In this document: positions 86-64,000 of the stretch, piece after piece
Layout: each line of letters begins with the position of its first letter
Numbering within the stretch: the first letter of the stretch is position 1
Notes under the pieces: model-generated
Databases searched by the model: none
Told to the model about the DNA's origin: nothing
Seen by the model: only the letters and a program-made list of their open reading frames with translations
Translations under genes and position numbers: made by a program
Assembly: GCA_049700155.1 (NCBI GenBank)
Contig: JBNAVX010000020.1
Coordinates: forward strand, 13,906 to 77,905
Length of the DNA stretch: 64,000 nt
Origin: Thermodesulfovibrionales bacterium
GTDB taxonomy: Bacteria > Nitrospirota > Thermodesulfovibrionia > Thermodesulfovibrionales > SM23-35
Direction of reading: 5' to 3'

Positions 86-2149
86 TTAAACTACCTGGGT
101 ATTTTTAACTACCCCATTTCTAAAACTCGGGATCATCTTTTGTATTAATGGTATAACCTCATCAGACAGATGGTTTGCGACAACTTGCTCAAGTTCATGC
201 ATATGACGAGAGATAATAGGCATTAAATTCTCATCAGGAACCGCTATCATAATTTTTTTATGGAAAGAAGGCAAAATATTTTCAGTCTTATCAAATAATT
301 CCTCATATAGTTTTTCACCGGGTCTCAGGCCGGTAAATATTATCTTGACCTCTTTGTGCGGAACAAATCCGGAAAGCCTGATAAAATTTTCTGCAAGATC
401 TATAATCTTTATCGGCTCACCCATATCAAGAACAAATATCTCACCACCTTTCCCTGATGCAGAAGCTATTAGAACAAGATGGACTGCTTCATCCGTTAGC
501 ATGAAGAATCTTTTCATCTCAGGATGTGTTATAGTTAAAGGACCTCCTTTGGTTAACTGATCTTTAAATACCTGGAGAACACTACCACTACTCCCAAGTA
601 CATTACCAAATCTGACAGTTGTAAACTTTGTCGCACTGGATGAATTCATATTGATTGTTAAAAATTCAGCAACACGCTTTGTTGCTCCCATAATACTCGT
701 GGGATTAACTGCTTTATCAGTTGAGATCAATACAAAACTTTCTACTCCATATTTACATGAAACATCAATGAGATTTTTTGTTCCAAAAATATTATTTTTG
801 ACTGCCTCAATAGGGTTATATTCCATCAAAGGAACGTGTTTATAGGCAGCAGCATGAAAGACAATCTGAGGTTTATATATTGAAAAAATATGTTCCAAAT
901 ATGGTAGATCCTGTATATCTCCTATAATAGTTGTGATTAATGATTCATGTTCTTCAGATCTTAATTCAAAGTCTATCTCATAAAGGTTGTTCTCTGATCT
1001 GTCAAATAATAAAAGGTTAGACGGTCTGTATCTAAAAATCTGTCTGCATAGCTCTGAACCAATAGAGCCACCTGCACCCGTCACTATTACCGTTTTATTT
1101 TCAATAAATTCTTTTACAGCAGAAATATCTGTATTTACAGGTTCTCTTTGAAGAAGGTCTTCAAGGGAGATGGGTTTCATATGAGATATCCCAAGTTGCT
1201 TATTAAGAAATGCATTTAATTCTTCTTCAGTGATATAGCCAAGTTTTACAAGTTTTGCACCAAGTCTTCCTCCCTCCTTTTTTTGAAGTGAAAGGGCTTC
1301 CTTTACCTGTGCTTCTGTAACTAATTTAGCATTTATTAGATGTTGTCCGAGTCTGGCTCCAACATATACATTGTTTTCAAGTATCTCATTTATGTTTGGT
1401 AGCTTTTTAAGAGGAATGTTAAATGGTTTACATATCTCATAGATATTTCTTATTGGTTTCTTTATATCAGCAGGTGATATTAAAATTTCATCAGGTCTTT
1501 CTTTTTCAAGAATCTCTGGAAGCATATCAGTAGTTCCCATTATAGGAACACCGTGTATTGTTAATCCTTTCTTCTGAATATCATCATCAATAATTCCTAT
1601 TGGCTCATATAAACATTCTTTATTACTCCTCATTTCTCTTACTATCATCTCTCCTGAACTCCCTGAGCCTATGATGAGCATTTTTTTACGAGATGATTTT
1701 AGGAACATAGATTCTCTTATCAGTCTTACAAGAAGTCTGCTACCACCAGATATAACAATTATCAATAAGAGATCGAGTATATATATAGAACGAGGATATT
1801 CTATATCACCGATCAGATATCTTACAATCAATAAAAAAGTTAAACTACCAATTGTTGAGGAACTTATGATCTTTATTAAATCACCGATACTCGCATAACG
1901 CCATAACCCTTTATAGAGTCCGGCTTTAAGGAATAATGTTAGACGGATAATTAAAAGAAGAGGGAGGTAGGTAAAAAATTTATTGAGATAATATGTTGAT
2001 GGTAATGATTCAAAACGTATTACGAAAGCAAGATAATTTGCGAGAGATGCCTGAACAAGAAGTATGATAGATACAATAATAAACCTGTGTTTTATAATCT
2101 GATCCTTAATGAATTGGTAAATTTTAATACTAATATTATTTTTAATCAT
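86..2149 (-). CDS. Membrane-anchored polysaccharide biosynthesis NDP-sugar 4,6-dehydratase/epimerase (CapD/WbpM/PglF family) with an inserted MshEN-like module
   Basis: 687 aa. N-terminal hydrophobic helices, then [18 protein letters not shown] (Rossmann fold), [11 protein letters not shown] and [20 protein letters not shown] (Polysacc_synt_2 signatures). Residues 266-318 form an extra tandem RLG...Q repeat (see findings). Confidence 0.9.
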
Positions 2150-2287: not shown

Positions 2288-2887
2288 TCAGGAACCCTTA
2301 TGACCCCCAGCTCTCAAAACAGTCTTTAATATTAACTTTAAATCTGTAATGATATTATGGTTTTCTACATAACTCATAGAAAGGGCAATTTTATCAGGCA
2401 AGATTCTTTTTTTATATTCTTCTTCCCATTTATCAGTTAAAGACAGAAGGAGTTCTTCATCTGAATACCTGAGTGAGGCAGGATCTGTAATGCCAGGACG
2501 TATTCTGAGCAATTTTTTATAATCTGACTCATACAGCTTAACATATTCCTTTACTTCCGGCCTGGGACCAACAAAACTCATTTCTCCTTTTAAAACATTA
2601 AATAGTTGCGGCAACTCATCTATCTTATATCTTCTCAGAAATTTTCCTACATTCGTAATACGTCTATCACAGGCAACTGTAATTTTAGGTCCTTCCTCAC
2701 TTGGATTATATTTCATTGTTCTGAATTTATAAACTTTAAACGGTTTTAGATTTCTTCCTACTCTTTCCTGAACAAAAAAGACAGGTCCTTTACTATCAAG
2801 TTTTATCAAAAAAGCCACTATAATAAAGAGGGGAAAACAGAGAATTAATCCAATTAAAGAGAAAATAAAATCAAAAATTCGTTTCAA
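2288..2887 (-). CDS. Small monotopic phosphoglycosyltransferase (undecaprenyl-phosphate sugar phosphotransferase, PglC/WbaP C-terminal-domain family)
   Basis: 199 aa. One N-terminal hydrophobic helix, then KVYKFRTM and DELPQLFNVLKGEMSFVGPRP, the bacterial sugar transferase signatures. Confidence 0.9.
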   Translation of the reverse strand: MKRIFDFIFSLIGLILCFPLFIIVAFLIKLDSKGPVFFVQERVGRNLKPFKVYKFRTMKYNPSEEGPKITVACDRRITNVGKFLRRYKIDELPQLFNVLKGEMSFVGPRPEVKEYVKLYESDYKKLLRIRPGITDPASLRYSDEELLLSLTDKWEEEYKKRILPDKIALSMSYVENHNIITDLKLILKTVLRAGGHKGS

Positions 2888-2904: not shown

Positions 2905-4056
2905 TTATCTTCTATTTTTTAAGATTATATCCTGTACTGCTTCTATTACATATTCCATGTTATCTGAAGTCATCCCAGGATATATAGGCAACGAAATAAT
3001 TCTTTCATATATCCATTCAGAATTAGCAAATTCTGAAAGATTATAACCGAACATATTTTTATAATAAGGATGTCTATATAAAGGAATAAAATGAACAGAT
3101 GCAGTAATCCCTCTATTTCTCAACTCTTCAATAAACTGATTCCTGCCTATTTTCAACATTTCAAGGTTCAGTTTTAAAACATATAGATGCCATGCGCTCT
3201 TTCTATCAGTTTTAACATGAGGAGGAATTACTTCAGGCATTGAATTGAATGCCTCTGAATATCTTTCAGAAATCATTTCTCGCCTTTCCCACATCCAATC
3301 AACCTTCTTAAGCTGTGCTATTCCAAGTGCTGCCTGTATATCAGTCATATTATACTTAAAACCTGCATCCACAACTTCATAGTACCATGAACCTTCATTT
3401 GTATATCTTTTCCATGCATCCTTTGATATGCCGTGGAGCCTTAATATCTTTATCTTCTCTGCCCATTCATTATTTTCTGTAGTTAACATACCTCCTTCAC
3501 CAGTGGTCAAGGTCTTTGTTGCATAAAAACTAAAACATGTTAAATCTCCTATAGTGCCTATTCTTTTTTTCTTATACCAGGCTGGGATTGCATGTGCGGC
3601 ATCTTCGATGACAAATAGATTGTGTTTTTTTGCTATATCTAAAATTTCGTCCATATCACAAGGCTGTCCTGCGTAATGTACAGGGATTATCACTTTAGTC
3701 TTATTTGTTATTTTCTCTTCAATCTTTGATAAATCAATATTGCATGTTTCTTTCTCAACATCTACAAAAACAGGTTTCGCCCTGAAATAAGTTATTACTT
3801 CTGCTGTTGCAGCAAATGTTATTGCAGGAATAATAACCTCATCTGCTTCTTGTAAATTTATTGCTCTAAGGGCAAGATGAAGACAGGCAGTACATGAATT
3901 CATTGAAATAGCATTTCTCGCACCTATATATTCTTTGAATCTTTCTTCAAATTCAATAGTTGTTGGACCCATAGTTATCCATCCAGTTCGCAGGGTATTG
4001 ATAACCATAGTCACTTCATCTTCTGTTATATAAGGTTTATGAAAAGGTATTTCCAT
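2905..4056 (-). CDS. DegT/DnrJ/EryC1/StrS-family PLP-dependent aminotransferase (NDP-4-keto-6-deoxy sugar aminotransferase)
   Basis: 383 aa. FSFYATKTLTTGEGGML carries the PLP lysine context. The whole length resembles PglE/WecE-type enzymes. It lies between the dehydratase/PGT genes and the export genes. Confidence 0.9.
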   Translation of the reverse strand: MEIPFHKPYITEDEVTMVINTLRTGWITMGPTTIEFEERFKEYIGARNAISMNSCTACLHLALRAINLQEADEVIIPAITFAATAEVITYFRAKPVFVDVEKETCNIDLSKIEEKITNKTKVIIPVHYAGQPCDMDEILDIAKKHNLFVIEDAAHAIPAWYKKKRIGTIGDLTCFSFYATKTLTTGEGGMLTTENNEWAEKIKILRLHGISKDAWKRYTNEGSWYYEVVDAGFKYNMTDIQAALGIAQLKKVDWMWERREMISERYSEAFNSMPEVIPPHVKTDRKSAWHLYVLKLNLEMLKIGRNQFIEELRNRGITASVHFIPLYRHPYYKNMFGYNLSEFANSEWIYERIISLPIYPGMTSDNMEYVIEAVQDIILKNRR

Positions 4057-4098: not shown

Positions 4099-4728
4099 TT
4101 ATATTTTGATGAATAATAAAAGTATGGTAAAAATTGCTACAGCAATTGCAACAAATATTATGAAAGTAGGAAGATACTTTAAGTATTTAGGATGATGATG
4201 TCTATATGATGGAAAGTATATTACTTCTTTCTCTATTACTTTTTTATTACTTATTTCAACTCCTCTTCTATCATAATCATATGAAATTTTATTTTTATTC
4301 TCTCCTATCTCTCTATAAACCTGATTAATTTTTTTTGCTATCTCCTCATATCCTTTTTGATTAAACACCCTATCTGGATGGTAAATCATAAGAAGCCTCT
4401 TCCATCTTCTTCTAATTTCTTCAGGTGTTGCATCTTCTGTTAAGCCAAAAGATAAAAATAGATTGTTTTTTTTGTTGAACAGGAGAATATGGATTATTCT
4501 TTTAGCAATAGTCTCAATTTTTTCTTTGGGTTGTTTTATTAACCGGGAGACTTCTTTTCCTACCTCTGGTTTTTCAATCAAATCGAGGAGTGTTTCATAA
4601 CAATCAATAGACCTTTTATAAATTTCATCTAAATGACAACCTTCATTGAACCTGATAATAAGACTTGCTGTTGAAAAAACCTCTTTCTTTCTATCATTAT
4701 CCTTGCTAATTTTATACCAATCAGCCAT
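4099..4728 (-). CDS. J-domain (DnaJ-like) protein with a C-terminal transmembrane anchor
   Basis: 209 aa. TPEEIRRRWKRLLMIYHPDRV contains the HPD tripeptide of J domains. The C-terminal PTFIIFVAIAVAIFTILLLFIKI is a hydrophobic anchor. Confidence 0.65.
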   Translation of the reverse strand: MADWYKISKDNDRKKEVFSTASLIIRFNEGCHLDEIYKRSIDCYETLLDLIEKPEVGKEVSRLIKQPKEKIETIAKRIIHILLFNKKNNLFLSFGLTEDATPEEIRRRWKRLLMIYHPDRVFNQKGYEEIAKKINQVYREIGENKNKISYDYDRRGVEISNKKVIEKEVIYFPSYRHHHPKYLKYLPTFIIFVAIAVAIFTILLLFIKI

Positions 4729-4829: not shown

Positions 4830-7214
4830 TCAATCTTTTTCCTCTTCAAAATATGAAGAATAGTATGAGGAATGATAGTAATTGTATGAACCGTATTTAA
4901 GGTCTGATTTTCTCACACTGTTTAAAATCACTCCAAAGATTTTAGCATTCACATTCCTGAATATCTCTTTTATTTCTAATAAAGCCTTTTTGGGTGTCTC
5001 GCCTGCTTTTGCAACAAGAACAGTGCCATCAACTATCTTGCTAAGATATAAAGCATCAGGTAATCCTATCGCAGGTGGTGAATCTATAATAATAAATTCG
5101 AAAGAAGATTCTAAGACACTAATCAGGTCATCCATTCTTGATGAGCCAAGAAGCTCGGAAGGATTAGGTGGTATAGGACCTGATGTTATAATGCTCAACC
5201 CTCTTATATATGTTGGTTTTATGAACCCGCCATTAGTATTAGACCCATCAAACTCCATATTACCAGAGAGGAACGTTGAAAGACCTACTGAATTATTCAC
5301 CCTCAGAGAATGATGAAGCTTTGGCCTTCTCAAATCACCATCAATAATCAGACCATTACCAAGGGATTCCACAAGGGCTTTAGCAATATTTATACTAACT
5401 GTTGTCTTTCCAACCTTTTCTCCTGCGCCAGTCACAAGTATTGTCTTTGGTGGTCTTGAGGCTGAAGATAACATGATAAATGCTGCTATTGAGCGAAATG
5501 CCTCTGCAATGGGAGTTGTCTTCTCTGAATCAACAAGTACAGGTGTATTAGGAGAACTAAGCTTTTCTTCAAATGAGAGCACCTTAGATGTAGCAATATT
5601 AAGACCTTTTTCAATGTCCTGGAAATTTGGGATCATTCCAAGAGTTGGGAGTTTCGCCTCTTTTTCGATATCTTTTGTATCTTTTACACTGTTGTCAAAA
5701 TATTCAGCTAAAAATGCCAGACCTATACCACCGACAAACCCAAAAATGATTGATAAAAGCATGTTTACCACAATATTTGGTTTGAAGGGCCACCTCGGGA
5801 AAACTGCCTTATCAAGTATCTGAATATTTGTTGCAGTACTACTTGCAGCAACACCAACCTCATTAAGTCTTTGTAATAAAGTATTATAAAGTGCTTTATT
5901 AGAGTCTACTTCCCTTTTTAGGACCTCAAATTGCGCTATTGTATCCTGATAAGAAAGGACTTTCCTTTTTTGTGCATTTAAAGCCTTTGTAAGATTTTCT
6001 TCTTTTTTGAGAGAAGCTTCATAGTCAGATTTCAAAGCCTCAATAATCTTTGATTTCTCCTGTTCAATCCTTTCATGAATCGAATCTATCTGACTCTTTA
6101 GACTCTTCATCTTTGGATAATCAGGTGTGAATGTCTTTGAAAGACTGGAATATTCTGCCTCAAGAGAAGAAAGCTGGCTTTTAAGACCCTGTATTAATGG
6201 ATTACTCAAGATTACTGGATTATTCCCACCCGACTCCTTTACTTCTCTATATAAAGCCTCTTTTTGCATCCTCTCAGTTGTGATACTATTAAGTGCTGAA
6301 GATATATCAACAAGTTTTTGTGTCTGAATACTCTCTCTGTCCTTATCCATTATTATTTCCTTACTGGCTGCGTATTCATTCAACTTCTGTTCAGACTCCT
6401 CAACCTTCTTCTTCATTATCTCAACCTGATTTTGAAGAAAAGCTCTTGCTTCTTTACTCGTATCAACTCTGCTTTCTAAATCGAAGGCAATATATGTTTG
6501 TGCAACAGCATTTGCGACATTCATAGATATCTCTGGATTATGTGAGATGAAACTGACTTTAACAAGTTGAGAATTCTTTACAGGAGTGACCTCAAGCCGG
6601 GAAATTAAGGCGTTAACGACATTATCAGGTATCTCTTCTTTTTCGAGTGAACTGTTAAAAAGGTTATCGTAATTAACAGTCTTCTTATTTACAGGAGGCT
6701 TTGGAGCAACCGCTCTATATATTTTTACTATAATTCCTATCGTATTATCAAATATCGCATCCTTTATCTTATCTATCTTGCTCTTAACAGGCATAAAATC
6801 TTTATTCTTGTGCAGATTAAGCTTTCTGATCACCTCTTCTGCAAGACTCCTGCTCTTTAATATCTCATACTGGGTCTGATAATAATCTGGGCCAGTCTTT
6901 AAGCCCTGAACATCAGTAAAAGAAAGGACATTGGGATTATCTCCCATTATTTTTATAACAGCAGTTGCCTTGTATAAAGGCGTCATCATAAAGCTAAGGA
7001 TTAAAGTAGTTACAAAAACAGAAACTAAAAATATCATAACAACTTTCTTTCTTTTAAGAATTACATTGATATAATCCCTAAGATGAACTTCTTCTTCAGC
7101 TTTATAATCGAGATAATCCCTTAATTGTTCTATATGTGTTGAAAGTGGGAAGTCTCGTTCATACTTTTTTATTTCATATTTATTTTTCATTTCACCATCT
7201 TTATTAATAGCCAT
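4830..7214 (-). CDS. Polysaccharide co-polymerase / tyrosine autokinase (Wzc/GumC/EpsG-like)
   Basis: 794 aa. Wzz-type N-terminus with a TM helix, long coiled-coil, and second TM helix. Walker A GAGEKVGKTT, Walker A-prime IIDGDLRRP, Walker B FIIIDSPP. Tyrosine-rich C-terminal tail YGSYNYYHSSYYSSYF. Confidence 0.9.
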   Translation of the reverse strand: MAINKDGEMKNKYEIKKYERDFPLSTHIEQLRDYLDYKAEEEVHLRDYINVILKRKKVVMIFLVSVFVTTLILSFMMTPLYKATAVIKIMGDNPNVLSFTDVQGLKTGPDYYQTQYEILKSRSLAEEVIRKLNLHKNKDFMPVKSKIDKIKDAIFDNTIGIIVKIYRAVAPKPPVNKKTVNYDNLFNSSLEKEEIPDNVVNALISRLEVTPVKNSQLVKVSFISHNPEISMNVANAVAQTYIAFDLESRVDTSKEARAFLQNQVEIMKKKVEESEQKLNEYAASKEIIMDKDRESIQTQKLVDISSALNSITTERMQKEALYREVKESGGNNPVILSNPLIQGLKSQLSSLEAEYSSLSKTFTPDYPKMKSLKSQIDSIHERIEQEKSKIIEALKSDYEASLKKEENLTKALNAQKRKVLSYQDTIAQFEVLKREVDSNKALYNTLLQRLNEVGVAASSTATNIQILDKAVFPRWPFKPNIVVNMLLSIIFGFVGGIGLAFLAEYFDNSVKDTKDIEKEAKLPTLGMIPNFQDIEKGLNIATSKVLSFEEKLSSPNTPVLVDSEKTTPIAEAFRSIAAFIMLSSASRPPKTILVTGAGEKVGKTTVSINIAKALVESLGNGLIIDGDLRRPKLHHSLRVNNSVGLSTFLSGNMEFDGSNTNGGFIKPTYIRGLSIITSGPIPPNPSELLGSSRMDDLISVLESSFEFIIIDSPPAIGLPDALYLSKIVDGTVLVAKAGETPKKALLEIKEIFRNVNAKIFGVILNSVRKSDLKYGSYNYYHSSYYSSYFEEEKD

Positions 7215-7253: not shown

Positions 7254-8327
7254 TCAGTATGCGTACCCATAGGTACCAAAACGAAAGATGCCAAAACTTA
7301 TGCCCGTTGCTACTCTACCTAAAAATCCCTTTAAACCACTTCTTTCAACAATTATAATGTCCTTATCTTTAATCTCAATATCAGTGCTCTTCCTATTTAA
7401 TATTGAATCATAATCTACTTCAATTACTTCTCTTTCAGGCTTACCATTATCTCTGTAAATCTTAATACCTGAACGAACTGCCTCAAAATCTAATCCCTTT
7501 GCCATACTTAAAGCCTGAGTAAGTGTTATCTTTCCTTTAAGAGGGAATGAACCAGGTCCTTTAACAGCTCCATCAACAAAGAATATTCCAGCCTGTGGAA
7601 CATGAATTACATCACCTGAATATAATGGTATATTTAAATCTATGTTTCCCTTAATCAAAAGCGAATCAAGATCTATAACTATCTTCTCAGGATTATCTTT
7701 ATTTTGTGATTCATTGTTTGTTGAACCCTGCCTTTGTATTATGCATATGTCTCCTGCATCCTGACTTAAACCGCCTGCCATTGAAAGCAAATCAAGAAGA
7801 TATTTTTGCCCGGTTGCATAAAATACTCCTGGATTTTTAACAGATCCCAGAACAGCTATTTGCTGGCTTCTGTATTCTTTTATGAATACACTCACAACAG
7901 GTTCAGTCATATATTTTTCGAGGTTTTTACAAATCAATGATTCGAGTTCACTGACAGTAAGTCCAGAAGCCTTAATCTTTTCTATCAACGGGAGTTTTAT
8001 GTAACCTGAGGCACTAACACGAACCAATGAATTCAACTCTGGAGCCTGAAAAACAGTAATCTCGAGCAAGTCTTCAGGACCTATTTTATAATCAGCAGTT
8101 GAAAACGCCCTTTTTAGTTCACCGCCTTTCTGAACAAGCTCTACATTTAACTTCTCTGCTTTTGTATTAGAAGCAACTTGTTGTAAAAGAACTGACTCAG
8201 GACGAGGTGAACTGCCCGCACAAGAATTCAAGAGAAGCAAAAGAAAAACTAATAGGACAATGATACTCTGAGAGAATTCATTTTTTAGCATCTTAATTAT
8301 TATAACTCTTTCTTCTGTTTTTAACAT
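7254..8327 (-). CDS. Polysaccharide export outer-membrane/periplasmic protein (Wza/Poly_export plus SLBB family)
   Basis: 357 aa. Signal peptide with a lipobox-like LLNSC. YKIGPEDLLEITVF is a Poly_export motif. A repeated SLBB-like GDVIHVP segment follows. The gene lies directly upstream of the Wzc-like gene. Confidence 0.85.
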   Translation of the reverse strand: MLKTEERVIIIKMLKNEFSQSIIVLLVFLLLLLNSCAGSSPRPESVLLQQVASNTKAEKLNVELVQKGGELKRAFSTADYKIGPEDLLEITVFQAPELNSLVRVSASGYIKLPLIEKIKASGLTVSELESLICKNLEKYMTEPVVSVFIKEYRSQQIAVLGSVKNPGVFYATGQKYLLDLLSMAGGLSQDAGDICIIQRQGSTNNESQNKDNPEKIVIDLDSLLIKGNIDLNIPLYSGDVIHVPQAGIFFVDGAVKGPGSFPLKGKITLTQALSMAKGLDFEAVRSGIKIYRDNGKPEREVIEVDYDSILNRKSTDIEIKDKDIIIVERSGLKGFLGRVATGISFGIFRFGTYGYAY

Positions 8328-8712: not shown

Positions 8713-9207
8713 TCAAGCGCTCTCTACATCATCAGCATAAATCCTTATGCCAACACTTCTTCCAAGGAGTTTCAGATCAACAAGAAGCATATATTGATCT
8801 TCTTTCTTTCTAAGAATTCCCTCTGCACCTTTAAGTGGACCTCTCCTAACTCTTACTCTTGTTCCCTCCTTAAGATATGGGAAAATATCAAGTTCTTTTC
8901 CACTTTCAATTAAAATCTTCAAGGAACTTATCTCTTCAGGTTGTATAGGAGTAGGATAGCCTGATTCTGAGGAAACAAGTTTCACAGCTCCTCTTGTTTT
9001 GAGCACATTGAAAAACTGTTCAGGATGTGGATAGATTTGGACAAAAAGATATCCGGGGAAAAGTGGAAAATCAATAAGCTTTCTTCTGTCTTTCCACTGC
9101 CTCCATCTTTTAACAGAAGGGAGAAATGTAGTTATACCCTTTTTTTCCAGCTCACTATTAGTAACAAACTCATGTCTTGATCTTACATATAAAGCAAACC
9201 ATTCCAT
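8713..9207 (-). CDS. NusG paralog, RfaH/UpxY-type transcription antiterminator (NGN plus KOW domains)
   Basis: 164 aa. WFALYVRSRHE...FLPSVKRWRQWKDRRKLIDFPLFPGYLFV is an NGN domain. GTRVRVRRGPLKGAEGIL is a KOW motif. The gene sits at the head of the polysaccharide export genes. Confidence 0.85.
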   Translation of the reverse strand: MEWFALYVRSRHEFVTNSELEKKGITTFLPSVKRWRQWKDRRKLIDFPLFPGYLFVQIYPHPEQFFNVLKTRGAVKLVSSESGYPTPIQPEEISSLKILIESGKELDIFPYLKEGTRVRVRRGPLKGAEGILRKKEDQYMLLVDLKLLGRSVGIRIYADDVESA

Positions 9208-23972: not shown

Positions 23973-25628
23973 ATGGAGCAGACTGAAGATATAAGTTTAG
24001 TAAAAGATATACTCCAGACCATTATCAAAGCAAGAAAAACCCTCAGGATGTATCCTACAAATAATCCCATATATATAAAGACACTTGAAGAAACATATAA
24101 CAAATTCAAGGAATTCTTCGAATACAGAGATGATCTCTCATTCAGGATAGGACAAAACAGCATCTATTTTGATTCAGAAGAGATATACCATAAGGATGAA
24201 AAAGAAGATAATCTCGCGCTTTTTTTCTTTAAAGATGGTTTGAGAGAACTTACGTTCAAAAAAGGGTTATCACAGGAAGAACTGGAAGAGTTTTTTAAGA
24301 TTATCACGCTGGATTATGAAAGAGAGGTTGAAGATGAAGATATAGTTACTCTCTTATGGCAAAGGGATTTTCAGAACATCATATATATTGTTGATGACAC
24401 AGTTCTACTTGATATAGAAGGAGAAGATTATGAATTAAAGGCAGTTAGTGAGGCAAAACAGACTGTATCAGACATTGAAGGACTAATGAAAGCTTATAAT
24501 GAAGAGTTCAAAGAAGAAGATGTCAAGGAAGTTCCAATCATATCTTTTACTGATAAAGACTTAAAGACCCTGATGAAAGAGCTTGAAACTGATTCATTGA
24601 GTAAGATAGATAAATTGTCTGACATCCTTTTTGAAATGCTTTATCAGTCTGAAGAACTCGGGGGTATACTTGAGGACGTATTCAGATTTTTAAAAGATAC
24701 CATAAAATTTTCTATAAGTCAGGGGGATTTCAAGGCAGTTATTAAATTAATAAACAGAGCTAAAGATTTTATAGAGGAACCCTACTCAACAGAAGATACA
24801 AAAAGATATCTAAAATTGCTTCTTTTATATCCTTCAAGTGAAGAGATCATAAATCTTCTGGGTGAGGTTCTGGACAGTCCTATCAGGATTGACGATGAAG
24901 ACTTTAAAGAATTTATCAAGCTTCTTGATAAAAAGGCTATCTCACCTCTCATTAATGTGCTCGGTGAACTAAAAACATTCCGTGTTAGAGAAAAGGTTAT
25001 TGATGCATTGATATTCCTTGGAAAACAAGATATCAAGACACTTGCCATGAATATCAATGATCCAAGATGGTATGTTGTCAGAAGTATCATTAGTATTATC
25101 AGAAAAATAGGAGATAGAAAGGCAAATGAATATCTCTTAAAGAATATCCGACACAGTGATGTAAGGGTAAGAAAGGAGATAATCAAAGGCATCAGTGAGC
25201 TTGGGGGTGAAGAATCTTTACCACATCTAAAAGAGCGCCTTGATGATGTAGACGCAGGTGTTAGAATAGAAGCTGTAAGGGCGATCGGTAATATAGGTTC
25301 TAAAAGGGCAAAAAATATTATTCTTGAGAAGATTTCTGATAAGAGTTTTAAAGAAAGAGACTTTGAAGAAAAAAAAGAATTTTATCGGGTTTTAGCAAAG
25401 TGGAATAACGATCCTGAAATCTTTGACTTTCTAACAAAGATATTAAAAAAGGGTTCTTTTCTCTGGTGGACAAAAAACTATGAAGAGAAGGCTTGTGCAT
25501 CATTATGCCTTGGTCTTATAGGTAATAAAGAAGCCTTACCTCTCCTTTACAAACAGACAGGTTCTGGAAATAAATTACTTGATGAAGTAACTCAAACAGC
25601 AATTAAAAGGATAGAACGTGGTTCGTGA
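23973..25628 (+). CDS. HEAT-repeat protein (unknown N-terminal domain of about 330 aa plus C-terminal PBS-lyase-type HEAT repeats)
   Basis: 551 aa. Repeats such as DPRWYVVRSIISIIRKIGDRKA, SDVRVRKEIIKGISELGGEE and DAGVRIEAVRAIGNIGSKRA. Confidence 0.7.
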   Translation: MEQTEDISLVKDILQTIIKARKTLRMYPTNNPIYIKTLEETYNKFKEFFEYRDDLSFRIGQNSIYFDSEEIYHKDEKEDNLALFFFKDGLRELTFKKGLSQEELEEFFKIITLDYEREVEDEDIVTLLWQRDFQNIIYIVDDTVLLDIEGEDYELKAVSEAKQTVSDIEGLMKAYNEEFKEEDVKEVPIISFTDKDLKTLMKELETDSLSKIDKLSDILFEMLYQSEELGGILEDVFRFLKDTIKFSISQGDFKAVIKLINRAKDFIEEPYSTEDTKRYLKLLLLYPSSEEIINLLGEVLDSPIRIDDEDFKEFIKLLDKKAISPLINVLGELKTFRVREKVIDALIFLGKQDIKTLAMNINDPRWYVVRSIISIIRKIGDRKANEYLLKNIRHSDVRVRKEIIKGISELGGEESLPHLKERLDDVDAGVRIEAVRAIGNIGSKRAKNIILEKISDKSFKERDFEEKKEFYRVLAKWNNDPEIFDFLTKILKKGSFLWWTKNYEEKACASLCLGLIGNKEALPLLYKQTGSGNKLLDEVTQTAIKRIERGS

Positions 25629-27045
25629 AGACAATAAAGAAATCCAAAAAATATCGGCAGAGATAATTAATCAGACGTCTATTATTTTGAAGACTGCGCT
25701 TATTCATGAATCAACTAATATTGCTGTTAAAACAGCTGTGGAAAAATTAATATCTTTACTGAATCCACTAATTGAATCAGAAAAAAGTGTCACTCTTGAA
25801 CTTATTGGGGAGTTTTTTTATGTGAACAATACAAGGGTGCGTTATGCACTTGAATACCTTTTAAACTTTGATTTTCTTACCAAGGAATTCAGAAAAAGAG
25901 GTCTTGGAAGTGTCATCTTTAATAACCAGATCAGCCCTGAAGATATTCAAATATTCATTAAGGCATTCATAGCATCAGGGCTTTCAGAAGAACCATATGA
26001 AAAGATGCTTGAAATGATGGATAATTCTCGAAATATTCACATAGATAGGTTGAAAAAAATTATAGAAGATAGATTAAAAAGGATTGGAGAAGGTGAAGAC
26101 GTTGATACAAGAAGAATTATTAAAAAAACATATTTTAATGCTGTTTCATTTACAAAAGGTGTGATGAAGAAGATCCGCTCAGGTGAAAGGGCAGATATGA
26201 AAAAGGCAAAAAGGATAGTTGAATCAATGGTTGATCAATTACTTGAAGACGAACATCTTCTTCTCAGCCTTACAGCCCTCAAAGACTATGATGAATATAC
26301 CTACCATCACATGGTCAATGTTAGTGTGCTTTCGATGGCACTCGGCTTGAGACTTGGGCTAAATAGAATGGCTCTAACAGAATTGGGTCTTTCAGCATTA
26401 TTCCATGATATTGGAAAAATCCAGATTCCTAATGAAGTATTGAACAAGCCTACAAGTTTCACTGATGACGAATGGAAGATGATTAAAAAACATCCTATAT
26501 GGGGCGTGAAAGCAATTCTTGGTTTTGGACGTTTTGGAAGTACAACAATAAGGTCTGTTATCGTCTCTTTTGAACATCATATGAATTGTGATTTTTCAGG
26601 ATATCCTCATGTAAAAAAATACTCTGAGCTTGACCTTTATTCAAGAATAGTAGCACTTGCTGATCAGTATGATGCAATGACTTCATCAAGGGTTTATTCA
26701 AGGACTCCTATTCCTCCTGACAAGACTTTAAGTATCATGATGGAACATGCTGGGACAAAGCTCGACCCACTGCTTTATAAGTTTTTCATTAATATGGTAG
26801 GGATTTACCCGATAGGTACAATAGTGATGTTAAACACAAGAGAAATAGGACTTGTTTATGAGAGCAATATGGCTTTTGCAGACAGACCGAAAGTTCTGAT
26901 AGTCATTGATGACAAGGGCAAAAGTGTTCGGGGCCCAATTGTTAACCTCTCTGAGAAAGATGAAAATGGTAAATATATTAGGTCTATCATGAAAACTCTG
27001 GATCCAGAAAAATATAAAATAAATCTCGCTGAGTATTTCTTGTAA
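25618..27045 (+). CDS. HD-GYP domain protein (putative c-di-GMP phosphodiesterase) with an uncharacterised N-terminal domain of about 230 aa
   Basis: 475 aa. YHHMVNVSVL, LFHDIGKIQIP, HPIWG and HHMNCDFSGYPH (HD...GYP) motifs. The GTG start overlaps the HEAT-protein gene by 11 nt. Confidence 0.88.
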   Translation: MVREDNKEIQKISAEIINQTSIILKTALIHESTNIAVKTAVEKLISLLNPLIESEKSVTLELIGEFFYVNNTRVRYALEYLLNFDFLTKEFRKRGLGSVIFNNQISPEDIQIFIKAFIASGLSEEPYEKMLEMMDNSRNIHIDRLKKIIEDRLKRIGEGEDVDTRRIIKKTYFNAVSFTKGVMKKIRSGERADMKKAKRIVESMVDQLLEDEHLLLSLTALKDYDEYTYHHMVNVSVLSMALGLRLGLNRMALTELGLSALFHDIGKIQIPNEVLNKPTSFTDDEWKMIKKHPIWGVKAILGFGRFGSTTIRSVIVSFEHHMNCDFSGYPHVKKYSELDLYSRIVALADQYDAMTSSRVYSRTPIPPDKTLSIMMEHAGTKLDPLLYKFFINMVGIYPIGTIVMLNTREIGLVYESNMAFADRPKVLIVIDDKGKSVRGPIVNLSEKDENGKYIRSIMKTLDPEKYKINLAEYFL

Positions 27046-62753: not shown

Positions 62754-63260
62754 ATGCATCCTCTTGTTGAGCTTGCAAAGAAAAGTGTAGAAATATATAT
62801 AAAGGAAAAGAAGGTCATTGAGCCTCCTGAGTCTCTTCCTCCTGAATTGAGAGAAAAGGCTGGTGTATTTGTATGTATTAAGAAACACGGACAGCTCAGG
62901 GGATGTATCGGGACCTACATTCCATGTTGTGATAATGTAGCCCTTGAAACGATAAGGAATGCTATATGTGCTGCGACAAAAGATCCAAGGTTCAATATTG
63001 TCTCAGAAAAAGAACTAAAAGACCTTGAATATTCAGTTGATATACTTTCACCGCCTCAAAAAGTTACAGACCTTGGTGAACTTGATCCTAAAAAATATGG
63101 AATAATAATTGTGAGCGGGAATAAGAAAGGACTTCTTCTCCCTGACCTTGAAGGAGTCAATACTATTCAAGACCAGATAAGGATTGCGAGGATGAAAGCC
63201 TCTATAGAACCAGATGAAGATGCGGAAATCTATAAATTTGAGGTTAAAAGATATAAATGA
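62754..63260 (+). CDS. AMMECR1 domain protein
   Basis: 168 aa. [18 protein letters not shown] contains the conserved LRGCIG motif. Confidence 0.85.
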
Positions 63261-64000
63261 TAGAGATTCCTCTTAAAGGTAATATAAGGGAATTCAGCAT
63301 ACCAAAGGTCCTTCTATATTTAAACAGGAACAGAAAAACAGGTATTTTAATTATAAAAACCCAGACATTTACTAAAAAGGTCTTTATGGAAAAAGGAGAT
63401 GCCATCTTTGCTTCATCTACATACGAAGATGATAGATTGGGCGAGATGCTTGTTAAAGCAAAAAAAATAACGCTCCAGCAACTTGAGGAGTCTGTAGAAC
63501 TACTCAAATTAAGAAAAAAAAGGCAGGGTGCAATACTTGTAGAACTTGGTTATCTAACCCCAAAAGACCTCTTCTGGGGTGTTAAATATCAAGTAAAGGA
63601 AATAATCACCAGTCTTTTTACTCTCGACTATGCTGAATACAAATTTATTGAGGGAACCCTGCCTGAAGAAGTAATTACACTTAAAATGAGCATGGGGAAC
63701 CTTATATATGAAGGTATAAAAAAGATAAATAATCTTAATCTAATAATGAAAGAGATGAATATAAATTCTGTCTTAAAGCTCAGTACAGACCCCGTGAGTC
63801 TTTTTCAGGATATAGAACTTGATGAAAAAGACAAAAAACTGCTTTCAAGAATTGATGGAAAAAAGACTGTTAAAGAACTTGCTGACAGTTCTCCTGAGGG
63901 TTCTTTTGAGGCATTAAAAACTCTGTATGCCTTATGGTGTACCGGAACACTCGAAGAAAAAGTGGAGTTGCCTGAAAAGACAGAGGTACCATTAGATGAG
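63257..64000 (+). CDS. DUF4388/PATAN-like protein with a degenerate MshEN/T2SSE_N-like repeat; 3' end truncated by the window edge
   Basis: The ATG overlaps the AMMECR1 TGA (ATGA). [26 protein letters not shown] is the DUF4388 start motif. Residues 60-112 form a 24-5-24 RLG/RQG repeat. The ORF is open to position 64000 (248 codons) and is absent from the ORF track. Confidence 0.7.

Follow-up and report, generated by a model that had tools for sequence, protein, structure and literature searches.

An internal MshEN_N module in a PglF/WbpM/CapD-class sugar dehydratase of Thermodesulfovibrionia and its possible role in c-di-GMP control of exopolysaccharide initiation

Known control of exopolysaccharide (EPS) production by cyclic di-GMP (c-di-GMP) runs through PilZ domains (as in BcsA and Alg44), the I-site receptor PelD, PgaCD, the MshEN domain of NfrB, or transcription factors. 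In BcsA-PilZ, Alg44, PelD, PgaCD and NfrB alike, the receptor sits on a polymerising glycosyltransferase or co-polymerase, and the gene described here is not a member of that group. It lies in a 64,000-nucleotide stretch of DNA (hereafter the window) from a Thermodesulfovibrionales bacterium (GenBank assembly GCA_049700155.1, contig JBNAVX010000020.1, positions 13,906 to 77,905 of the forward strand), where it spans 86..2149 on the minus strand and encodes a 687-residue UDP-N-acetylglucosamine (UDP-GlcNAc) 4,6-dehydratase of the PglF/WbpM/CapD class, as judged from the listing of open reading frames (ORFs), Pfam and an alignment with 5BJU. Inside this protein, a 58-residue insertion (aa 264-321; 1187..1360, minus strand), delimited by an alignment gap and by predicted helices, holds a four-helix MshEN_N module. 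We consider it probable, though well short of assured, that c-di-GMP binding by the insert changes the packing of domains or of the oligomer, so that the initiating sugar, and EPS with it, would follow c-di-GMP.

The insert shares the 24-5-24 motif, a predicted four-helix bundle and contact residues, kept or conservatively replaced, with the MshEN domain of MshE from Vibrio cholerae and of PilB/PilF/GspE (5HTL; PMC5013675), but it corresponds only to the MshEN_N half, it is internal rather than N-terminal, and it has Ile or Val instead of Leu at position 17; moreover, its output domain is a sugar dehydratase from the SDR (short-chain dehydrogenase/reductase) superfamily, whereas that of MshE and PilB is a secretion ATPase. 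NfrB, a family 2 glycosyltransferase of Escherichia coli with a C-terminal MshEN, likewise places an MshEN-type receptor on an EPS-synthesis enzyme, and there c-di-GMP binding turns on EPS production (PMC8669469; Junkermeier & Hengge 2021). NfrB, however, is a polymerising synthase with a full MshEN, whereas here the receptor is on an enzyme of nucleotide-sugar precursor synthesis, before glycosyl transfer; by analogy, the dehydratase fusion may be like NfrB and BcsA in outcome, though at a different step. EpsG of Methylobacillus, in which MshEN_N accompanies a chain-length tyrosine kinase, also belongs to a polysaccharide pathway and, together with Bd2402, represents the published MshEN_N-only architectures (PMC5013675 Suppl. 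Table 4), but its module is terminal with another partner domain, in contrast to the internal module of the dehydratase. No CapD/Polysacc_synt_2 partner is listed in Supplementary Table 4 of Wang et al. 2016 (PMC5013675), and our literature search found no paper on MshEN fused to a dehydratase or epimerase of the CapD/WbpM/PglF/EpsC type.

With PglF (Campylobacter jejuni), WbpM (Pseudomonas aeruginosa) and CapD (Staphylococcus aureus), the window protein has in common the membrane anchor, the pseudo-Rossmann domain, the SDR domain with the TDK...Mx3K fingerprint and the same operon partners, namely an aminotransferase and a phosphoglycosyl transferase. Canonical-type homologs pass directly from the pseudo-Rossmann domain to an (I/V)x(I/L)EDLLxR helix and lack the 58 residues. 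Inhibition of S. aureus CapD by cell-wall precursors provides a precedent for enzyme-level control, albeit of another kind, with no second messenger involved (PMC6441080).

An MshEN_N module in the linker of a sugar dehydratase

The module comprises 53 residues in 24-5-24 geometry (aa 266-318; window 1196..1354). Motif 1 (aa 266-289; 1283..1354) occupies positions 1-24 of the NCBIfam model NF053729 and aligns to R9-Q32 of MshE; a five-residue spacer, KKEGG (aa 290-294; 1268..1282), separates it from motif 2 (aa 295-318; 1196..1267), which aligns to MshE R38-Q61, all of these being on the minus strand. NF053729.1 ("c-di-GMP_motif, MshE-related") matches aa 266-318 over its entire length (1-53/53) with 61.7 bits against a cut-off of 38 (E 4e-17), and the models of NfrB (NF008411, aa 265-323), EpsG (TIGR03029) and PilB align over the same insert residues. 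In phmmer searches against PDB sequences, the insert aligns ungapped to residues 8-64 of V. cholerae MshE (5HTL; E 9e-9), as well as to the N-domains of PilF and PilB, and a profile made solely from PilB/MshE modules matches the dehydratase ORF with 86 bits (E 3e-26). A six-frame scan of the whole window found no second complete two-motif unit. The sole other match of the PilB-module profile in the window (32.6 bits) is a DUF4388 protein at 63257-64000 on the plus strand, which continues past the window end; its hairpin is degenerate and MshEN_N-like, the second RLG and both terminal Gln being gone.

The predicted structures point in the same direction. In the AlphaFold2 (AF2) model of the whole protein (predicted local distance difference test, pLDDT, 79.5), the insert forms helices at aa 263-273, 279-292, 296-302 and 308-318, flanked by low-confidence linkers. 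A model of the insert alone (core pLDDT ~80) superposes best, in a Foldseek search against the PDB, on 5HTL_B, i.e., MshE with c-di-GMP, with a root-mean-square deviation of 1.0 A over 54 columns at 44% identity; the top 13 matches are all N-domains of MshE, PilF or PilB, with ranks 2-13 taken by PilF and PilB. The predicted fold of the insert is thus a four-helix bundle superposable on MshE.

The Pfam model PF05157 (T2SSE_N/MshEN) has no match at E<=1 in the protein, nor on a 77-residue segment of it, yet it matches the lineage's PilB with 84.5 bits. As PF05157 models the C-terminal part of MshEN (PMC5013675), its absence here indicates that the insert is MshEN_N only, lacking the alpha/beta subdomain MshEN_C/T2SSE_N1, and the null is therefore no evidence against the module, since the model covers the other half of MshEN. 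That the MshEN_N subdomain suffices for binding follows from the isolated V. cholerae MshEN_N(1-62), whose dissociation constant for c-di-GMP is 0.35 uM (PMC5013675). By geometry, profile score and predicted fold, then, the insert is MshEN_N and not a full MshEN.

The insertion appears as one clean 58-column gap (aa 264-321) in four canonical-type homologs from four phyla (Legionella, Bacillus thuringiensis, Rhizobium and Pseudanabaena), while the window protein and two relatives in the same alignment carry the 58-residue block between a conserved G-N-(I/V)-x-V and the (I/V)-x-(I/L)-EDLL-x-R helix; the canonical comparison is one with plasmid-borne homologs rather than with full-length PglF, WbpM or CapD. 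Homology to the canonical enzymes extends to about aa 263, and the PglF crystal construct starts just past the insertion point, which identifies the insertion site as the linker between the pseudo-Rossmann and catalytic domains.

The carrier protein itself is in the PglF/WbpM/CapD class. It begins with a membrane anchor (~aa 22-133; 1751..2086, minus strand, like all features of this gene), recognised from hydropathy windows and the AF2 model, in which its four hydrophobic helices lie at aa 22-45, 52-76, 88-113 and 120-133. A cytoplasmic pseudo-Rossmann (CoA_binding_3) domain follows (~aa 155-256; 1382..1687), assigned from Pfam PF13727, whose match runs over aa 77-225, and from the alternation of strands and helices in the model. 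The catalytic SDR domain (Polysacc_synt_2, PF02719; aa 354-636; 242..1090; E 1e-116) shows the TGxxGxxG signature of the SDRs as TGAGGSIGS (aa 357-365; nt 1055-1081), and aa 326-677 align with 5BJU, the structure of the catalytic part of C. jejuni PglF (E 2e-91). T477-D478-K479 (nt 713-721) and M487x3K491 (nt 677-691) constitute the TDKxnMx3K fingerprint described for retaining UDP-GlcNAc 4,6-dehydratases of the PglF/WbpM class (PMC8987622), and these residues are invariant in 86 homologs. Pfam finds no glycosyltransferase domain in the protein. The predicted conversion is of UDP-GlcNAc to UDP-2-acetamido-2,6-dideoxy-4-hexulose, with which the neighbouring aminotransferase and PglC-type transferase are consistent.

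An earlier note, made from the letters of the window, had proposed a complete 24-5-24 MshEN-type module at 1196-1354, lying between the membrane/pseudo-Rossmann half and the SDR half of the 687-residue protein. Its coordinates (aa 266-318) proved exact and are covered by the full-length NF053729 match, and 5HTL was recovered by both sequence and predicted fold. The location is likewise correct, with homology to canonical enzymes ending near aa 263 and the SDR domain beginning at V354, and its statement that canonical enzymes have only a short linker at this point agrees with the four homologs without aa 264-321. Alignment with orthologs further shows a clean insertion of narrow spread (about five clusters and 39 species genomes, as detailed below). 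The completeness claimed for the module holds for its two motifs but not for MshEN as a whole, MshEN_C being absent, and the insertion is larger, at 58 residues, than the 53-residue motif. The statement that the second repeat fits every consensus position was mistaken: position 11 is Tyr305, whereas the published consensus there is L/V/I/F, with Phe in V. cholerae (PMC5013675).

Conservation, distribution and kinship with PilB

All of the best 120 homologs (60-100% identity, ~690 aa) have the module (120/120), and none shows an indel in it. Mean pairwise identity among 117 homologs is 68% in the insert, as against 55.5% in the transmembrane region, 62% in the pseudo-Rossmann domain, 75.5% in the SDR domain and 35% in the C-terminal tail. 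The insert is under purifying selection and more conserved than the enzyme's own N-terminal domains.

A scan with patterns derived from the insert and its flank, covering 185,579 species at one genome each, recovered 39 loci with a full match to dehydratase plus insert, every one of them in a metagenome-assembled genome (MAG). Almost all of these genomes bear the label Nitrospirota, Thermodesulfovibrionia or Thermodesulfovibrionales; contigs CAWKOO010000002.1 and CAVOUK010000002.1 are examples from complete Thermodesulfovibrionia MAGs with the fusion. A single insert-bearing dehydratase comes from a genome with another label, on a 315-kb contig of Candidatus Scalindua sp. (L036; JALDRB010000003.1); it is 57% identical and scores 56.8 bits with NF053729, but the usual operon neighbours are all absent, and either horizontal transfer or faulty binning could account for it. 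In an exhaustive HMMER search of aa 225-345 against 1.84 billion representatives of 50% identity clusters, the flanks and the insert were matched together in only about five clusters, the other ~2,900 matches being insert-only, in PilB-type ATPases, NfrB-like glycosyltransferases, multi-repeat proteins and others. Four candidates of suitable length for CapD inserts in other phyla (P0130, P0166, P0185 and P0251) were discarded as ATPases or HDOD proteins. Divergent representatives of the fusion nonetheless exceed the NF053729 cut-off (P0124, 56.5 bits; P0127, 46.7 bits). The fusion is thus narrow, almost all of it confined to one lineage, the Thermodesulfovibrionia of the Nitrospirota.

This recurrence also disposes of the idea that the architecture is an artefact, be it through chance, mis-assembly or chimeric gene calling, to which we give almost no credence: over 120 protein clusters drawn from independent assemblies, and 39 genomes at the species level, show the same in-frame architecture, an identical dehydratase protein occurs on two further contigs, and the E-values range from 1e-8 to 1e-26.

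A further 41 kept loci from the genome scan were insert-only, and nearly all of these are the N-termini of bona fide PilB; one that was checked scores 802 bits with TIGR02538 (cut-off 676) and has the motif at aa 5-57 (NF053729, 72.5 bits). Several come from MAGs that also carry the fused dehydratase. The nearest sequences to the insert are these PilB N-termini of the same Nitrospirota lineage: mean identity between modules is 66% from insert to insert, 61% from insert to Nitrospirota PilB, 43% to V. cholerae MshE and 41% to Myxococcus xanthus PilB, and the KKEGG spacer is common to the inserts and the Nitrospirota PilB modules (34/40 PilB). Judging from these similarities, the most probable donor of the insert is the pilus ATPase PilB of the lineage itself, at its N-terminus. 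The module appears to have spread to further proteins in this lineage, as suggested by an FHA-domain protein with an internal MshEN_N module (L044:7365-8360; NF053729, 64.7 bits; ORF running past the locus end) in the MAG CAZXCW01, which also contributed locus L006; this module is 79% identical to the insert of the same MAG's dehydratase.

Ligand contacts and the proposed gating of the enzyme

Residues of MshE that contact c-di-GMP have been assigned roles in guanine stacking and backbone hydrogen bonding by position (PMC5013675). Across the 117 homologs, no variation occurs at G268, Q289 or G297, 116 keep L286 and as many keep L315, and R295 gives way to Lys in 8 (Arg in 109); position 266 is R/K, 267 is L/I, 282 is I/V and 311 is L/F/M, L296 is kept, and Q318 is Gln in 76. 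The contact positions of both motifs are all kept or conservatively replaced, the replacement being V282 for Leu, and Val can supply the same CH-pi contacts as Leu (PMC5013675). The two deviations that the earlier note had recorded in the first repeat, K275 and V282, are indeed there, but comparison with relatives suggests that they are traits of the lineage rather than signs of decay. Position 10 of motif 1 (K275) is a turn residue, for which the inserts and the PilB of the lineage mostly have Asn; K275 is the sole point at which motif 1 fails the published relaxed motif ([GAS] at position 10), as that PilB does too.

We propose that the inner-membrane dehydratase, the aminotransferase and the PglC-type transferase would make and load the initiating 2-acetamido-2,6-dideoxy-hexose of a Wzx/Wzy-type EPS, and that in Thermodesulfovibrionia the flexible linker joining the pseudo-Rossmann and SDR domains of the first of these enzymes received an MshEN_N module, probably copied from the lineage's own PilB. 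Most likely, the two 24-residue motifs of the insert together bind one c-di-GMP, in the manner of MshE, and binding would alter the packing between the two cytoplasmic domains or among the oligomer subunits. The supply of initiating sugar, and hence EPS output, would then track cellular c-di-GMP. By analogy with NfrB (PMC8669469), the effect is probably activation, at high c-di-GMP. Binding of the ligand, the sign of its effect and the mechanism of coupling are our predictions, whereas the enzyme class, the identity of the module, its insertion point, its conservation, its narrow distribution and its kinship with PilB are observed.

Several points weigh against this proposal. The first motif has K275 in place of the consensus turn Gly and Val (V282) in place of a guanine-stacking Leu, and Ile or Val for Leu at position 17 might have changed the affinity or the specificity of the module. 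About one third of the homologs have H, R, L or M in place of Q318, and in one genome (L025:8001-8300; GGMLGSKL) the first Arg of motif 2, R295, is Met, the sole such exception among the sequences examined. No GGDEF motif or diguanylate cyclase was found in the 64-kb window, and scanning about 1 Mb of related loci for the motif gave no credible GGDEF protein. The linkers of the AF2 model are of low confidence, and the model is silent on contact between the module and the catalytic domain. Finally, some MshEN domains, such as that of XpsE, no longer bind (PMC5013675), and PilB N-domains of the same fold can be protein-protein interfaces, the PilB-PilZ structure 7LKM being among the Foldseek matches.

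Some of these points would suit a structural relic, in which the PilB-derived helical bundle persists as a spacer or dimerisation element after losing nucleotide binding, like the MshEN of XpsE. Degenerate MshEN domains do exist (PMC5013675), motif 1 is off the strict consensus at two positions and fails the relaxed motif at position 10, and no cyclase was found nearby in the window or in the ~1 Mb of related loci scanned. Yet the least variable positions of the insert are the ligand contacts and the Gly-backbone positions and not merely the hydrophobic core; none of the XpsE-type substitutions (G11V, R38G, G40L and others) is present; the PilB proteins of the lineage and of M. xanthus likewise have a residue other than Gly at position 10; and the NF053729 cut-off is exceeded in the window protein, in P0124 and P0127 and in the 'Scalindua' copy. 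We accordingly regard a relic as improbable.

Position 17 raises the separate question of the ligand, being Ile or Val in every CapD insert and Leu in 40/40 Nitrospirota PilB modules. Such a change at a guanine-stacking position might have retuned the specificity towards another molecule, e.g., 3'3'-cyclic GMP-AMP (cGAMP), and V. cholerae MshEN does bind cGAMP weakly (PMC5013675). This we find very unlikely, for the Gly-x pairs whose backbone amides read O6 and N7 of guanine are invariant, and Val can make equal CH-pi contacts (PMC5013675). Binding of c-di-GMP with an effect on the dehydratase stays our preferred reading of the module.

The polysaccharide locus, its c-di-GMP context and a cyanobacterial parallel

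The gene lies in an EPS operon, and upstream of it on the same strand come, in order, the PglC-type transferase, the aminotransferase, a DnaJ-domain protein, Wzc, Wza, UpxY and an NDP-sugar dehydrogenase. The immediate upstream partner (2288..2887, minus strand, as are all the genes of this operon) is a small PglC-type phosphoglycosyl transferase (Bac_transf) that matches the C-terminal half only of EPS_sugtrans (E 7e-70) and adjoins the dehydratase in most related loci. Next to it is a sugar aminotransferase of the DegT/PseC/PglE type (2905..4056), which scores 406.8 bits with PseC, below the cut-off of 423.5; the order aminotransferase, PglC-like protein, dehydratase is preserved in ~27/39 related loci. 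Between the aminotransferase and Wzc is a 209-residue DnaJ (J)-domain protein with a C-terminal hydrophobic helix (4099-4728), and such a DnaJ-domain membrane protein recurs in loci L006, L014, L028, L032 and L035. A Wzc-type tyrosine autokinase/co-polymerase (4830-7214) and a Wza-type exporter (7254-8327), both recognised with NCBIfam, are also found upstream in many related loci. The Wzc ORF of the window encodes 794 residues and matches tyrosine-kinase models; on an identical contig (L086:4944-6986) the public Wzc-like call is 680 residues long with no Pfam matches on record and is seemingly truncated at the C-terminus. At the head of the operon is an UpxY/RfaH-type antiterminator (8713..9207; NF033644, 125.8 bits, cut-off 100), and the UpxY-type antiterminator is conserved in many related loci; the UpxY family is best known from Bacteroides capsule loci. 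On the two contigs with the identical dehydratase, a nucleotidyltransferase and then a second 4,6-dehydratase follow downstream. The locus is of the Wzx/Wzy polysaccharide type, with the initiating sugar coming from the dehydratase/aminotransferase pair.

Two metagenomic proteins, P0127 (897 aa) and P0075 (935 aa), combine in one chain a PglC-type Bac_transf domain, the membrane/pseudo-Rossmann region, the MshEN_N insert and the SDR domain. These natural triple fusions suggest that the transferase and the dehydratase act as one unit, and they bring into play a different use of the module, namely as a c-di-GMP-dependent docking or assembly site that channels the pathway without serving as a catalytic switch. 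Its partner could be the PglC-type transferase, Wzc or a local diguanylate cyclase, or the module could promote oligomerisation. A complex is what the triple fusions suggest, the location of the module in a flexible interdomain linker with low-confidence flanks is compatible with docking, NfrB, the MshEN glycosyltransferase of E. coli, directly contacts a specific cyclase, DgcJ (PMC8669469), and in Xanthomonas the homologous N-domain of PilB acts as a surface for protein binding (7LKM). Set against this, no partner gene visibly co-varies with the insert, the DnaJ-domain membrane protein being the only unexplained conserved neighbour. The observations would suit docking and allosteric control alike, and we rate docking as rather unlikely, well below direct gating of the enzyme.

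Evidence for c-di-GMP turnover on the same contig may be seen in an HD-GYP-type protein encoded outside the EPS operon (25618..27045, plus strand; Pfam HD_5, 76.6 bits; FHDIGK...HHMNCDFSGYP), a probable c-di-GMP phosphodiesterase or sensor by its sequence. Its gene comes directly after that of a HEAT-repeat protein (23973-25628, plus strand), with overlapping stop and start. In the same ~1 Mb of related loci, motif scans gave one credible HD-GYP protein only, Pfam-confirmed, in L046, with a pattern that is incomplete, the HD-GYP protein of the window having been detected by Pfam and not by it. The L046 protein (L046:415-2766, minus strand), from a Nitrospirae MAG, has the architecture GAF-GAF-HisKA-HD_5 (HHHERYDGKGYP) and is encoded upstream of, and adjoining, an MshEN-bearing PilB, a neighbourhood that appears to tie c-di-GMP turnover to PilB in the Nitrospirota lineage. 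Our search of the literature on c-di-GMP enzymes of Thermodesulfovibrio yielded nothing useful.

A second c-di-GMP-type attachment emerged from the insert-free Pseudanabaena control (WP_126391687.1), which carries a C-terminal EAL domain (E 3.5e-57) and is encoded on a plasmid of Pseudanabaena sp. ABRG5-3 (L005:4568-7420, i.e., NZ_AP017566.1 37567-40419). The best 120 homologs of this protein (P0271-P0390; 46-100% identity) all combine Polysacc_synt_2 with EAL (120/120), and their hosts include Microcoleus, Oscillatoria nigro-viridis PCC 7112, Gloeocapsa PCC 7428, Moorena, Phormidium and others. By a crude motif check, the DDFGTG-type motif is absent in 116/120 and EGVE in 119/120, so that these EAL domains look like receptor-type, catalytically degenerate versions. 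We found no paper on the CapD-EAL fusion in the literature search. The two fusions have in common the enzyme class and the attachment of a c-di-GMP-type domain, but the cyanobacterial one is a C-terminal EAL of ~240 residues, in another phylum and of independent origin, whereas the Nitrospirota one is an internal MshEN_N. The occurrence of two unrelated c-di-GMP-type modules on the same scaffold in two phyla makes a functional link to c-di-GMP more credible, and the case for gating of the enzyme, which the earlier note had put forward as an inference, is strengthened by this independent EAL fusion together with the HD-GYP protein in the same window. A broader version of the proposal can be put forward tentatively, its likelihood being in our judgement a little short of even: c-di-GMP would gate the dehydratase directly, such gating would have arisen at least twice, through a PilB-derived MshEN_N and through a degenerate EAL, and pilus and EPS would respond to one signal with similar affinity.

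The hosts of the Nitrospirota fusion are uncultured and seen as MAGs, which is a limit, but the CapD-EAL fusion occurs in cultured strains, including PCC strains, and offers a tractable parallel system. The Nitrospirota fusion is a clean case, with a discrete 58-residue cassette in a linker and natural insert-free homologs as controls. The catalytic fragment of the PglF/WbpM/CapD class is soluble and active. The cyanobacterial proteins further suggest that the link between c-di-GMP and the dehydratase is general, beyond the uncultured Nitrospirota. If the proposed gating is true, the commitment of the precursor would be a new control point, distinct from polymerisation, secretion and transcription, and the output domains of MshEN_N would extend to SDR enzymes. 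The probable PilB origin would show how a pathway can be rewired by copying a sensor from the lineage's own repertoire, and, with sensors of shared ancestry on PilB and on the dehydratase, pilus assembly and EPS initiation would be tied to one signal in these bacteria.

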